Positions 1,176-5,893 of a DNA stretch of 38,772 nucleotides are shown piece by piece. Origin of the DNA: a virus; UHGV virus genome UHGV-0236456; one strand, written 5' to 3'. The position numbers and the translations under genes were made by a program. The first letter of the stretch is position 1; each line of letters starts with the position of its first letter. The notes beneath the pieces are model-generated. The model did no database searches. It had not been told where the DNA came from and saw only the letters and a program-made list of their open reading frames with translations.

Positions 1176-1192
1176 AGATTTATTAGAGCAAT
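1176..1192 (-). promoter_or_regulatory. C1-repressor operator-like site (AGATTTATTAGAGCAAT, 16/17 to reverse complement of ATTGCTCTAATAAATTT)
   Basis: Motif read in sequence; consensus recalled from P1 literature; lies upstream of minus-strand gene 290..997. Confidence 0.5.
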
Positions 1193-1698
1193 TATTGTTG
1201 ATGGAGAAGCGCGTTTTCATACTCCCTGACCATTAACGTAAGTACGCCGTGACTCCTGAAAACACGCGCCACTTCAATCTTATCTTCCAGCGCGAACGCA
1301 ATTTTACTTAGACCAATTTTCTTCAGGAGATCAATCTTTGCTGGACCGTCATTTCTGTCATCGGTGGCAGGACGCATAGATAGCAAAGGCTCCGCCCCAT
1401 TTGTTACGTGCTTACGCAACCAGGCTCGTGTTTTATCCCTGGCTATCTCACAGCGCCCGGTTACAAACCAGAGGGTGTAAATGCCGGACAACTGGCGCAC
1501 CATATCAATAACTGGAGTGATGGGAGCATCAGTGTCACAGGCAAGGTTAAACTCGTTCCAGTGCTCTGTTAATGCACCTTTGCCAGGTGGTGGAAGTAAA
1601 TGCAGCCTGTCTTCCGTTGCCTCTGATATCGTCCCATCAATATCTACTATGACGATGTACGGACGTTCCTGGTGTGCGTGTTTATTGAAAATACTCAA
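1192..1698 (-). CDS. HAD-superfamily phosphatase (polynucleotide-kinase-3'-phosphatase-like; P1 pap-like acid phosphatase by position)
   Basis: HAD motif I IVIVDIDGTI near N-terminus; TTG start at 1698 with strong SD GAGGAGGG; 168 aa. Confidence 0.75.
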   Translation of the reverse strand: MSIFNKHAHQERPYIVIVDIDGTISEATEDRLHLLPPPGKGALTEHWNEFNLACDTDAPITPVIDMVRQLSGIYTLWFVTGRCEIARDKTRAWLRKHVTNGAEPLLSMRPATDDRNDGPAKIDLLKKIGLSKIAFALEDKIEVARVFRSHGVLTLMVREYENALLHQQ

Positions 1699-1770
1699 AT
1701 GCCCTCCTCATTGGACGAAAAAAATGCTGGTGGGAGCACTCCACCAGCATTAAAAGTGACACTGTAACTA

Positions 1771-3033
1771 TCAGCGAACGTAAATAGTGCCGCCGTTCTC
1801 TTTTTCCCATGCATCGCTACGTGCATAGCAAACATCGAGAAGTCTTCTTGCCGCAGTTTCCTCTAAACCCAATTCGACAACCAACTGCTCATGACGGCGG
1901 GTAACCACATCAAACAGGGTATGCAGCCCTTTAGTTGCCAGATCATCAATGAATTCCGGTTCGAACGGCAGCTCTGCATCTGCCAACATAACCTCTTGCG
2001 CCCACTCAACTCGACGGACCAATTCCGGGCGACGGCTTTCCATCTCTTTACAGATCAATTCATGGAAGAACTCTACCCAACCTTCCGGCTGGAACTCGCG
2101 GAAAATTGCCAACGGCTGGAAGTTTGGCATCAACCATTCGTTGATTCGGATATCAATGGCATAGCCCATGTCGCAGCAGAACTGATAAGCAAAGTCCAGC
2201 TTAGAAACGATATAAGGACGCTCGTTATTGAACTCTTTAGGCGATGAGATCCCATAAGCCAGGAGGCGCGGGAAGAAGGAGATTTGCCCTAACGTCGGAT
2301 GAAGTTTGCTTGCAGGGAAACGGCGCTCAGTAATGCCATACATTTCCTTCTTGAGCGTCGCAAATTTGGCATTCTCATTAACCAGCGCGGTAACCTCTGC
2401 TTTTTTATTAGCAAATGCCACGCGCGCCTCGCTTGCATCTTTAATAGTTTTTTTGAGCTGTTGGTTAAGGTCGGCGACCTGCTTACGCAGTTCCTGTCGC
2501 TCGCTTTTAGCTTTGTTATAGCGTTTCTCAAGGTTAAAAGGATCAAGTTTCATGATCTCTTTATATTGAGATTTTAGCGTTGAAATCTGTGAGTTCCGCA
2601 GTTCAACCATCGCGGTCATTTCATTGAGTTTTGTTTCCAGCTCAATGCTTATACGTTCGGCATTATCAGCACGCTGGTTGGCGTCATGCGTCGCATCGTC
2701 GATCGCGTCCTGTTGCTGGCGTTTCAAATGTTCAATTTCCAGCTGAAGCTCTTCAATTTCTTTACCCTTCAGACCGAGATCCAACTGCATATTTTCAGCT
2801 GCATCTACCAGGGAATTATGGCTATCAGCTTCTGCGTTATAAACATCAATAAGCTGTGCGTGAAGCATCTCCGCTGACTGAACCGCATTATCAAAAAAAC
2901 GTGCTGTGAGGTCATCACAACTAACGCGGCGTTGCGCGGCCCGGATGTTCTGGATAATGGCCGGGATACCGGCATTCAGGACATCAGGGATACATACATT
3001 TTCGATTGATTGGTTTTGTGCTGAAGTGCTCAT
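1771..3033 (-). CDS. coiled-coil protein of unknown function (420 aa)
   Basis: Long heptad-like E/K/Q-rich central segment (residues ~90-230) followed by a globular C-terminal region; tightly packed with the downstream gene. Confidence 0.7.
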   Translation of the reverse strand: MSTSAQNQSIENVCIPDVLNAGIPAIIQNIRAAQRRVSCDDLTARFFDNAVQSAEMLHAQLIDVYNAEADSHNSLVDAAENMQLDLGLKGKEIEELQLEIEHLKRQQQDAIDDATHDANQRADNAERISIELETKLNEMTAMVELRNSQISTLKSQYKEIMKLDPFNLEKRYNKAKSERQELRKQVADLNQQLKKTIKDASEARVAFANKKAEVTALVNENAKFATLKKEMYGITERRFPASKLHPTLGQISFFPRLLAYGISSPKEFNNERPYIVSKLDFAYQFCCDMGYAIDIRINEWLMPNFQPLAIFREFQPEGWVEFFHELICKEMESRRPELVRRVEWAQEVMLADAELPFEPEFIDDLATKGLHTLFDVVTRRHEQLVVELGLEETAARRLLDVCYARSDAWEKENGGTIYVR

Positions 3034-3034
3034 T

Positions 3035-3333: not shown

Positions 3334-3334
3334 A

Positions 3335-4036
3335 TTATTCTGATTCTCGCTCAAAAAATGAGCTGATAAGGGGAAGCCAATCCTCTGACACTTCGCGAGG
3401 TCGCGGTTTGCCGTGGAAAAAGATTATTCGGCAGTCTTTTGGTAATGCCCCATTCCCCCTGGAGTAACGCGCGCTCGCATATTTTGAACCAGGTTCCACA
3501 ACATCGGCCTTGTAACTTACAAACCATCCTGGATACAGATCCTGAAATGCTGGTGTATCATCGCCCATAACCTTTCGTAAGAACCCCTGGTCACCCCAAC
3601 ACTCAGTAGTGACACAACGAGAAATCCAACCTTCCGGATCTTGCCAGAATGAACTCCAGATATGCGCTTTAACACTATTTGGTATCCACAGGGCACCGCT
3701 GCCACGATATTGTGGATGGTAAAAATCCCTAAGCATGGTGAAGCTGGTTGGTGGATGCTCTAGGATTGGGCGTATATCACCGGCAATAACCGTGTCCAAA
3801 TCCAGATAGAACAGATCATCGGTTATATCCGGTCGGAACAACTCGATTTTCGCCCACCAGCCACGGCACTTTTGCCACTGGTTGATCAATGGGACAACTT
3901 TGACGCCAGGTACATGTAAACGCTTCAGGTCTGTCAGGCAAATAATTTCATAGCCTTTTGGCAGTTGATTAACCAGCCACTGCACATCGGAAGCGTTATA
4001 GTCACCACCAGAGCGAAAAACTAAAGCAATCTTCAT
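3335..4036 (-). CDS. putative glycosyltransferase-like protein (GT-A-like, DxD motif)
   Basis: YLDLDTVI (DxD) motif after an N-terminal beta-alpha region; 233 aa; start overlaps stop of ppp-like gene. Product assignment is tentative. Confidence 0.65.
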
Positions 4037-4725
4037 GCTGCACCATCACCTTTCACTTTCATCAATGTCAGGTTTCCGCAAAATACGGCACCAGTGTCGA
4101 TATACTGCTGATTCCAGAATGTCTTCGGGCTTTTCACCGGAGTGTGACCAAAGATAAAACGATCTGCGCCCGAAATTTCGCCACCAATATCATCCATCGA
4201 ATCACTGATACGCTCGCGCGCCCAGACAACGTTGAAAAGCGGCACCTCCTTACCGAATTGGTATTCATTATCCGGATAGTCGGCATGGGCTATAACGATA
4301 GTTTCTTGCCCGGTGTTCAACTCAATGATATAGGGCAGACGCTTTACCAGCTCCACCAGCGCCCAGGCTAATATTTCCTGATCAGTGTCCAGCATGAAGA
4401 ACCATTGTCCGCCATTCATTAGCCAGTTATTCACGTTGCCATCTGGACTTAACGCATCAATCATCAGCCGCTCATGGTTCCCCATCACTGCCCTGAACCA
4501 GGGCATCTGCAATAGTTCCAGACATTCGACATTTTCAGTACCGCGATCGATAAGGTCGCCGACCGATATCAGTAAATCCTGCGCCGGGTCAAAATCCACA
4601 CGATGGAGTTCGGACATCAGTCTGGTGTAGCAACCATGCAGATCACCAACAACCCAGACATTCCTGTATTTGGTACCGTCGATACGGTGATAAATTGTGG
4701 GTGCCATCATGTATTCTTCAGCCAT
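4033..4725 (-). CDS. ppp: Ser/Thr protein phosphatase, lambda-phosphatase (PPP) family
   Basis: Canonical metallophosphatase motifs GDLHGC, GDLIDRG, GNHE; 230 aa. Confidence 0.9.
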
Positions 4726-5333
4726 TCTTTAAGAGTCATCTGCGGAATACCTCCCATTTTCCCGCATGAAACAACGTCAATCCGTTCACGCGCAGACTGG
4801 AATAACAAAGGCAGGTGACTTAGATTTTTTGGCGTGCCGCCGGAGTGAACGCGTGGTTCTTGTGTAGCGTCAACGCCCACCAGGGCGACATGTTTGAATC
4901 CGATATGGAAAGCCAGGTTCAGAGCACCATATGCACTATTGCCGCTGGCAATTTCATTCTCATCTTCGCAAAGGCCGAAATGTGCGGACCAGCGCCACGC
5001 CCACCACTCGGGAGAATTCGTATTTTTTGGCTCCATGCCGCGTTCAGCCACACGACGGAAGCACAGAACGCCATCTCTGACTTCACGTTCTTTAACATCG
5101 GGTAGTGCCATGCAATAACAAACACCACGGCGACGGCGGCCACGACCAACGCGCCGCATATTGTCTGGGGATGGATCAAGGGTGAAAAAATAAGAAGCGC
5201 GGTTAAGCCAGTCGATGGCCCCATTGACCGCTATAATCGGCACTCCGCGCGGCGCAACAAAGTTTGCGGCGCTTGGGCCACTGCCGACGATAATAACGCG
5301 ATCACTGCCTCTAAATTTATTCTTGGGAAACAT
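4707..5333 (-). CDS. CstII/GT42-like (MAF/DUF115-like) putative glycosyltransferase, paralog 1
   Basis: IIVGSGPS ... IIAVNGAI ... [27 protein letters not shown], resembling the GNGPSL and SG...G..LSGID motifs of CstII-type sialyltransferases (from memory). Confidence 0.6.
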
Positions 5334-5893
5334 TGAATTGCACTGCTCCTACTTGCATTCAAAATATGTAAATCTGCGTGTTTTTTGCGGGTATCCAGGA
5401 ACTGCTGTTGCCATTTTGAAATAGACACCTGCGTTGGATTCCGTAGTGCTTGAGGGTGCGCGCCATGCCAATGAAGGCCGTTTTGCAGAGAACAGTCATA
5501 GCCGACTAATACCACTACTTCAGCCCCTGATTCAGCAGCCAGACTGATAGCCTGCGCGCCGCTATTTACCCCTTCCGCCGGTCCACAATATCGCCTGTAC
5601 TCCAACGAAAATGATTTCGCCGCCGCCAGGTTGGCTGTCACTTTGCGGAATCTCCCTCCCGGTATGGTGGATCCGTATTGCTTCCACCATGACAAATCAC
5701 CGGCGTATAAGGCATAAATGTCATCGAACATCTGCCAGGAATTGTTAACCGCGATGATTGAACAGCCAGTTTTTTCTATAGCAGCACAGTCCTCACGAGT
5801 GAGTGACGGACCGCTACCGACACAAAAAACAGTCCTAGTCGCCCTGGGTGGTATGTTCATTCTCAGCTGCAAATTCAGCCTCCAGGCGAGCAT
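5231..5893 (-). CDS. CstII/GT42-like (MAF/DUF115-like) putative glycosyltransferase, paralog 2
   Basis: VGSGPS ... IIAVNNSW ... SGAQAISLAAESGAEVVVLVGYD; same motif set as 4707..5333; 3' end overlaps the next gene by ~100 nt in another frame. Confidence 0.6.
   Translation of the reverse strand: MLAWRLNLQLRMNIPPRATRTVFCVGSGPSLTREDCAAIEKTGCSIIAVNNSWQMFDDIYALYAGDLSWWKQYGSTIPGGRFRKVTANLAAAKSFSLEYRRYCGPAEGVNSGAQAISLAAESGAEVVVLVGYDCSLQNGLHWHGAHPQALRNPTQVSISKWQQQFLDTRKKHADLHILNASRSSAIQCFPRINLEAVIALLSSAVAQAPQTLLRRAECRL

Follow-up and report, generated by a model that had tools for sequence, protein, structure and literature searches.

The 38,772-nucleotide virus genome UHGV-0236456, called here the window in its full length, is phage P1. 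Within its positions 1192-5893, which are 98.8% identical to P1 NC_005856 79592-84293 and 99.4% identical to the P1-like phage-plasmid JL22, three minus-strand genes, pmgO (5231-5893, 220 residues), pmgP (4707-5333, 208 residues) and pmgQ (3335-4036, 233 residues), form a conserved unit that recurs widely among unrelated phages of Gram-negative bacteria. We tentatively favour, with rather less than even confidence, a reading in which this unit is a glycan-building cassette of the lytic phase, probably supplied with the cytidine monophosphate-activated 3-deoxy-D-manno-octulosonic acid (CMP-Kdo) of the host and having a virion protein as its likeliest target. The genes and their annotation at the level of the fold were already known; what is new here is the delimitation of pmgO-pmgP-pmgQ as a widespread, putative glycan cassette, a defined three-gene unit in place of the vague 4.7-kb "accessory block" of a preliminary description of the window, together with evidence for a joint function of its parts. 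Even though P1 is a workhorse phage, the name of the pmg operon has been the placeholder "putative morphogenetic" since 2004.

The conserved pmgO-pmgP-pmgQ unit

Loci were gathered from single-protein look-ups, from one genome per species, from metagenomes and from named phages, and their open reading frames (ORFs) were scanned with PmgO, PmgP and PmgQ profiles made in the present study. Dereplication at 85% PmgP identity left 51 groups, 34 of which retain at least 2.5 kb of flanking sequence on both sides. PmgQ lies alongside PmgP in every one of these 34 well-flanked groups and PmgO in 27 of them, one further group having PmgO and PmgP fused; the usual gene order is O-P-Q, with the ends abutting or overlapping. 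The conserved unit is pmgO-pmgP-pmgQ. The preliminary description had taken the whole 4.7-kb block as one module, but only these three genes travel together, and the phosphatase genes ppp and pap do not.

Clustering at 50% identity (E 1e-10 or better) places the unit in about 245 protein clusters. The scan of viral contigs yielded P1-identical loci only, and the diversity came from the genome and metagenome scans. The phages that carry the cassette infect Enterobacterales, Pseudomonas, alpha- and beta-proteobacteria, Bacteroidota and Gemmatimonadota, and all 18 genome matches fall in diderm lineages bearing lipopolysaccharide (LPS), namely Enterobacterales, Cellvibrionales, Methylophilaceae, Brevundimonas, Sinomicrobium and Longimicrobiales. 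PmgP is the best-conserved member, with 53-62% identity to copies in Pseudomonas and Ochrobactrum prophages.

The genes are also found fused, as PmgO-PmgP (P0051), PmgP-PmgQ (P0220, P0283), PmgQ-PmgP (P0306), PmgQ-PmgP-methyltransferase (P0272) and methyltransferase-PmgP (P0312), and with a TylF-type methyltransferase joined to PmgQ in ORF373 of the Xanthomonas jumbo phage XacN1. Recurrent additions to the unit are a class-I S-adenosylmethionine methyltransferase of about 190 residues (11 groups), a protein of about 192 residues with a weak nucleotide-sugar-transferase match (6 groups) and a GT4-like gene (3 groups, including E. coli phage EP_H11); an FkbM-type methyltransferase gene was found at one locus. 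The GT4-like gene of EP_H11 (L108 6602-7570) stands between pmgP and pmgQ, the position taken by ppp in P1, and the PmgP homologue of this phage (6001-6612) has been left unannotated in the GenBank record.

The surroundings of the cassette point to the late part of the phage life cycle. In 13 groups it lies inside an operon that runs from terminase, portal, protease and major capsid to neck, tail terminator and major tail genes, and several of these groups have the genes for the Ad1 adaptor and the Hc1 head-closure protein interspersed with those of the cassette. In 7 groups it lies beside lysis genes, and presumably virulent jumbo phages of Xanthomonas and Stenotrophomonas (309-385 kb) carry it as well. 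In P1, the annotated C1 operator Oppp (Op83; 6034-6050, plus strand), four positions off the C1 operator consensus in the window, puts pmgN-O-P-ppp-pmgQ under prophage repression. Furthermore, the late promoter LPpmgL, which precedes pmgL (6972-6990, minus strand; position transferred from the P1 annotation, L001 8781-8799), is located upstream of the cassette and could drive late read-through into it.

At chromosomal loci of Serratia plymuthica (L003), which has two PmgO copies, and of an Enterobacteriaceae metagenome-assembled genome and Pseudescherichia (L094-L098), pmgO, pmgP and pmgQ stand dispersed between very large Big_1, RCC1 or invasin-like ORFs, accompanied in Serratia by a lipoxygenase gene; the large Ig-domain proteins there could be candidate acceptors. 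In P0329 and P0347, PmgP is fused to a second C-terminal region of about 200 residues without a Pfam match, which by eye resembles a third, unclassified MptE-like paralog (GGSSGLFAV...G.P.D).

Fold and predicted activity of PmgO, PmgP and PmgQ

PmgO and PmgP had been described beforehand as adjacent paralogs reminiscent of CstII-type (GT42) sialyltransferases or Maf/DUF115 proteins. Their paralogy now stands far beyond chance. Pairwise BLASTP joins the N-terminal motif only (E 0.004 over 36 residues), and family profiles, built from 34 and 38 homologues with the natural O-P fusion left out, align in hhalign over 162 columns with 98% probability and E 1.4e-13. The shared motifs are GSGPS (26-30), AVN (48-50), SG (111-112) and G131xD133 in PmgO, and GSGPS (17-21), AVN (35-37), NS (132-133) and G153xD155 in PmgP. 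Invariant in the PmgO family are G28, P29, S30, N50, D66, S111, G112 and the run G131-Y132-D133-C134-S135, and further H141, H143, W161, N179 and R182; in PmgP they are P20, N37, G38, D53, N58, R94, R114, G131, N132, S133, G153, D155 and H173. The ends of PmgO are variable, with some 20 unconserved residues on either side. The first 20 or so residues of the annotated PmgO (5834-5893) are missing from most homologues and are modelled with a predicted local distance difference test (pLDDT) score below 50; the true start may be Met12 (5860), which would give a smaller pmgN/pmgO overlap.

The AlphaFold2 models are confident (pLDDT 94.6 for PmgP and 87.0 for PmgO) and have the three-dimensional fold of PF01973, the MptE-like/DUF115 (Maf) family. 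In structure comparison a glycosyltransferase came out best and aligned over a longer stretch, and a BFVD fold search returned uncharacterised MptE-like phage proteins only. Against the PF01973 model itself, PmgP and PmgO score 21.0 and 23.4 bits, below the gathering threshold of 34.6 and over the C-terminal end of the model only; relatives pass it, however (P0051 with 44.6 bits and P0258 with 44.1), and many homologues carry a precomputed PF01973 match. On this sequence comparison, PmgO and PmgP of P1 are divergent members of the superfamily. From the Maf flagellin glycosyltransferases of PF01973 (PDB 5mu5), whose solved chain has 632 residues, they differ as bare catalytic domains of about 200 residues, and as a diverged pair that always comes with a GT8-like enzyme.

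With regard to GT42, a merged PmgO and PmgP profile reached GT42 sialyltransferases only in the PDB, i.e., CstII (E 1e-3 over 147 positions), Cst-I (E 0.01) and 9c08 (E 0.07); no kinase was found among the PDB sequence matches of the profiles at E 10 or better. The GT42 Pfam model gave no match at E 0.1 or better, single-sequence PDB searches with PmgO, PmgP and PmgQ gave noise only, and NCBIfam has no model covering any of the three. Of the hallmarks of GT42, the fold is present, as are the nucleotide loop G-x-G-P-S near the N-terminus, the motif (T/N)-S-G and the strand with G-x-D. The profile alignment stops at CstII residue 182, short of the catalytic His188; phosphate is bound in CstII by Tyr156 and Tyr162. 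H141-W-H143 of PmgO is positioned at Ser-Ser-Tyr162 of CstII, and the invariant His173 of PmgP stands opposite a Lys; His188 itself could not be aligned, PmgO having instead an invariant H-W-H-G-x-H segment and PmgP this same His173. Compared with CstII and Cst-I of Campylobacter jejuni, there is no membership at the Pfam level, and PmgO and PmgP constitute a family separate from GT42 within the same fold superfamily. The fold part of the earlier likeness is borne out by structure and profiles, but membership in GT42 is not.

The fold houses CMP-sugar transferases as well as pyrophosphokinases. Because the merged profile matches GT42 and no kinase, and because all genes travelling with the pair are glycan enzymes, we infer glycosyltransferase rather than kinase activity for PmgO and PmgP. 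A sialyltransferase-like fold had been put forward as a new assignment if confirmed, but RefSeq NC_005856 already labels pmgO "alpha-2;3-sialyltransferase" and pmgQ "glycosyltransferase", after PHROG 4603 and 1962, and some PmgP homologues also bear the alpha-2,3-sialyltransferase label. For these proteins the label is unsupported, and literal sialyl transfer in E. coli K-12 is implausible.

PmgQ, proposed earlier as a GT-A-like protein with a DxD motif, proved to be more specifically GT8-like. The single sequence has no Pfam match, whereas a profile of 27 homologues matches GT8 structures in the PDB, 6mw5 (Gat1; E 1.6e-6), 5gvv (E 0.004) and glycogenins (E about 0.02). Its motifs are D79-L-D81 (DxD), G148-D149-Q150, S174-Y-K176 and H208-G-x-P-R-P213 (the GT8 HxxGxxKPW motif); of these, DxD, GDQ and HxxGxxKPW (as FHGxPRP) align with Gat1, a GT8 enzyme and glycogenin, and are invariant or nearly so in the 27 homologues. 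PmgQ is thus predicted to be a GT8-like retaining GT-A glycosyltransferase. Our search of the literature found no functional studies of pmgO, pmgP or pmgQ.

Proposed donor and acceptor, and competing explanations

In the reading we favour, PmgO and PmgP would act as a pair, probably a heterodimer, and transfer a host-supplied, CMP-activated 2-keto-3-deoxy sugar acid, probably Kdo, and PmgQ would add a hexose from a uridine diphosphate (UDP) sugar. The set is enlarged elsewhere by an O-methyltransferase of the sugar type and by additional glycosyltransferases. The product would be a short glycan, methylated in some cases. In a P1 lysogen the cassette would be silent (repressed), with expression during lytic growth, and the most likely acceptor would be a head, neck or tail protein of the virion.

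A donor supplied by the host is suggested by what accompanies the cassette: no sugar-nucleotide synthesis genes were identified among its annotated neighbours, and no nonulosonic-acid synthesis genes next to it in the examined loci. CMP-sialic acid, the donor of CstII and Cst-I, is not known to be made by the E. coli K-12 host of P1 or by most of the identified hosts, nor is K-12 known to synthesize sialic, pseudaminic or legionaminic acid. Among CMP-activated sugars of the right chemical class, CMP-Kdo alone is shared by all these hosts, and since it is the sole such donor in E. coli K-12, "sialyltransferase" is probably a misnomer. Host Kdo is used by phage glycosyltransferases already reported (bioRxiv 10.1101/2023.12.21.572611).

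The host itself offers the same pairing of folds as pmgO/pmgP with pmgQ. The KdoIII transferase WaaZ of E. coli is an MptE-like protein that uses CMP-Kdo (PMC6358824), and K-12 waaZ (L005 5346-6197), whose product has a sub-threshold PF01973 match (E 7e-7), adjoins the glucosyltransferase genes waaJ and waaO. We take WaaO and WaaJ to be members of GT8. Close kinship with WaaZ was rejected, hhalign giving a probability of only 15% and 14% for the two families; the similarity is one of superfamily, and the phage genes belong to a late operon rather than to an LPS core cluster.

A virion protein is proposed as the acceptor because the cassette lies time and again within clusters of head and neck genes and is timed late. 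Of the parts of this reading, i.e., the Kdo donor, the PmgO/PmgP heterodimer and the virion target, all reached by inference, the acceptor assignment is the weakest step. A model for the target is offered by mycobacteriophages, in which phage-encoded glycosyltransferases reportedly glycosylate capsid and tail proteins (work of Freeman and colleagues in 2023); the enzyme families and the host envelope there differ from those of the P1 cassette. We know of no virion glycan shown for P1 or for any other phage carrying the cassette.

Several observations weigh against the favoured reading. By sequence, GT42 is reached at a marginal E of about 1e-3 only, and no equivalent of CstII His188 could be aligned; the copies in EP_H11, XacN1 and L106 adjoin DNA-metabolism genes rather than structural ones; deletion or knockdown of pmgO, pmgP or pmgQ causes no plating defect (PMC10695390, PMC9024508); two recent P1 cryo-electron microscopy papers make no mention of glycans; and none of the family members has been characterised biochemically. 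Moreover, PmgP is 41-62% identical across phages with widely different structural proteins, which fits a conserved host acceptor (e.g., the LPS inner core) better than a phage-specific one.

This last point leads to the main rival, which we regard as a real but rather doubtful possibility: that the cassette remodels the envelope by acting on a conserved host glycolipid, e.g., Kdo2-lipid A or the LPS inner core. Like WaaZ and the GT8 outer-core enzymes, it would divert or truncate new LPS during lytic growth, and could thereby block the adsorption of progeny or superinfecting phage to an LPS-core receptor, or consume CMP-Kdo. The receptor of P1 is indeed the LPS core, every identified host bears LPS, the E. 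coli core operon pairs the MptE-like WaaZ with the alpha-glucosyltransferase genes for WaaO and WaaJ, the high conservation of PmgP across hosts suits a conserved acceptor, and the fusion P0051 carries a faint precomputed WaaZ_KDO_III (PF27901) match. Overexpression of WaaZ is reported to truncate the outer core (Frirdich 2003; PMC6358824). This must be set against the hhalign probability of only about 15% between WaaZ and either family, and against the fact that cytoplasmic enzymes made late alter newly made LPS only; besides, the cassette sits in head and neck operons and in presumably virulent jumbo phages, not beside integrases like known LPS-converting genes, and no membrane or flippase component accompanies it. 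The preliminary description had offered lysogenic conversion, receptor masking and modification of phage components side by side; of these, modification of phage components is the option we favour, whereas lysogenic conversion, in which expression from the prophage would alter the host surface, mask receptors or change the serotype, appears quite improbable. Although many copies of the cassette are in prophages, and O-antigen-converting phage glycosyltransferases are well known, it is disfavoured because the P1 operon is annotated with C1 operators, the prophage copies lie within late structural or lysis operons, and the cassette occurs in Xanthomonas and Stenotrophomonas jumbo phages that we presume to be virulent.

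It is likewise improbable, if slightly less so, that PmgO and PmgP are pyrophosphokinases of the MptE or thiamine pyrophosphokinase kind that activate a small molecule or sugar for PmgQ. The sole Pfam family matched is indeed named after MptE, the archaeal 6-hydroxymethyl-dihydropterin pyrophosphokinase (8sd5). Nevertheless, a glycosyltransferase gives the best and longer structural alignment, the sequence profile has no match to MptE or thiamine pyrophosphokinases and reaches GT42 alone, and a pterin, thiamine or other cofactor-pathway context is absent, the partner genes being all glycan enzymes, with glycosyltransferases, methyltransferases and structural genes as neighbours. Farther still from likely is a role in DNA hypermodification, in which the cassette would glycosylate phage DNA bases as in T4 and the phages with glycans on 5-hydroxymethylcytosine (5hmC). 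We know of no hypermodification of P1 DNA. A methyltransferase is frequent beside the cassette, and phage glycosyltransferases placing Kdo and other LPS sugars on 5hmC do exist (bioRxiv 10.1101/2023.12.21.572611); the methyltransferases, however, are of small-molecule or sugar types (Methyltransf_23/24/25, FkbM, TylF) and not DNA C5 enzymes, and neither a TET/JBP dioxygenase nor a hydroxymethylase was identified beside the cassette.

Returning to glycosylation of the virion, a bolder version would hold that a portable PmgO/PmgP and PmgQ cassette draws on the CMP-Kdo pool of the host and, in phages as different as HK97-like prophages and Xanthomonas jumbo phages, puts a short Kdo-containing, sometimes methylated glycan on the head, neck or tail proteins of the phage itself; stated so broadly, we consider it unlikely. 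Such a system would be, as far as we know, the first virion glycosylation in a Gram-negative phage and the first protein-linked Kdo. Glycosylated virions, if real, would extend the glycosylation of phage particles from mycobacteriophages to Gram-negative phages and would bear on immune recognition in phage therapy, particle stability and receptor biology, while LPS remodelling, if real, would give phages a new way of modifying receptors in the lytic phase. Both outcomes are directly testable in P1, for which deletion mutants and virion proteomics exist.

The pmgO/pmgP overlap and the neighbouring genes

All ORFs and motifs of the preliminary description were recovered on the minus strand where it had placed them, and its gene names pmgO, pmgP, ppp, pmgQ and pap are correct by the identity to P1 NC_005856. 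In transcription order, the genes are pmgN, pmgO, pmgP, ppp and pmgQ, then pmgR and pmgS, and then pap; pmgN, pmgR and pmgS, which lie within or border the interval, were absent from it.

The overlap of about 100 nt between pmgO and pmgP measures exactly 103 nt (5231-5333, minus strand), pmgP being read in the -1 frame with respect to pmgO, and had been flagged as a possible sequencing error. Such an error is ruled out: of 127 independent P1-like loci (98.3-100% identical), 125 have each of the two ORFs uninterrupted and equally long. That the overlap conceals a single gene, through a sequencing frameshift or a programmed -1 frameshift yielding a PmgO-PmgP fusion, is accordingly very improbable. 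The relative frame of pmgP would suit it, natural O-P fusions are known among homologues, and the overlap contains, in the frame of pmgO, a canonical slippery heptamer of the X_XXY_YYZ type, A_AAT_TTA (5312-5318, minus strand). Conservation of this heptamer, however, does not extend to the Pantoea and Chimaeribacter relatives, one would be expected by chance in an estimated 10% of overlaps this long, a frameshift would remove the conserved C-terminal helix of PmgO, and pmgP starts from an ATG of its own, with AGGAG placed 12 nt before it; a programmed fusion is thus unlikely. The pmgP ATG is embedded in the conserved Cys-Phe-Pro codons of pmgO (caATGtttccc), an arrangement (A TGY TTC CC) common to the examined enterobacterial copies of P1, Pantoea and Chimaeribacter, which would account for the M-F/L-P start of many PmgP homologues. 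Within the overlap, the variable tail of each protein lies over the conserved part of the other, and P1 has the longest PmgO tail; in the relatives from Pantoea and Chimaeribacter the two genes share about 40-50 nt.

The two phosphatases could be assigned as had been proposed. Ppp (4033-4725, minus strand) has all three motifs of a lambda-type Ser/Thr phosphatase, GDLHG (27-31), GDLIDRG (56-62) and GNHE (82-85), together with a Pfam Metallophos domain (E 9e-16, 59.3 bits against a cut-off of 21.5); it also matches PHROG 246 (NinI-like; E 5e-113) and NCBIfam PRK11439, with 272 bits under the equivalog cut-off of 326. Pap (1192-1698, minus strand) is a phosphatase of the haloacid dehalogenase (HAD) superfamily and of the polynucleotide-kinase-phosphatase type, with DIDGT at 19-23, HAD_PNKP PF25109 (E 3e-11, 44.1 bits against a cut-off of 27.6) and PHROG 415 (E 6e-56), and without a kinase domain. 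Between pmgP and pmgQ, ppp is found in the P1 and Pantoea lineages only, and the diverged P1-like elements, which hold VRR-NUC, pmgO, pmgP, pmgQ and pmgS, have no ppp; it is a lineage-specific insertion and not a conserved member of the cassette. Searches of five non-P1 loci with the P1 proteins found no pap or ppp homologue, and both were therefore rejected as conserved partners. A strong terminator-like hairpin between the pmgS stop and the pap start (1723-1751, minus strand; 11-bp stem with 6 GC pairs, followed by a T run) suggests that pap is probably not co-transcribed with pmgR-pmgS. Because of the insertion of ppp, the absence of pap and ppp elsewhere and the hairpin before pap, the phosphatase and glycosyltransferase block is a juxtaposition rather than a module.

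Between pmgQ and pap, pmgR (3035-3253) and pmgS (1771-3033, a coiled-coil protein), which are likewise outside the cassette, form a separate unit on the minus strand headed by its own C1 operators OpmgRa and OpmgRb (Op86; 3268-3333), matches to which were found in the window; pmgS follows pmgQ in the diverged P1-like elements only. The small ORF pmgN (5835-5990), downstream of Oppp, heads the operon and overlaps the annotated start of pmgO. Just upstream (6057-6883) lie pmgM (VRR-NUC nuclease-like), which remains adjacent to the cassette in diverged P1-like elements, and pmgL (a DksA-like zinc-finger protein). Additionally, other close matches to the C1 operator consensus are present at 17364-17391 (an overlapping inverted pair), 20651-20667 and 37591-37607.

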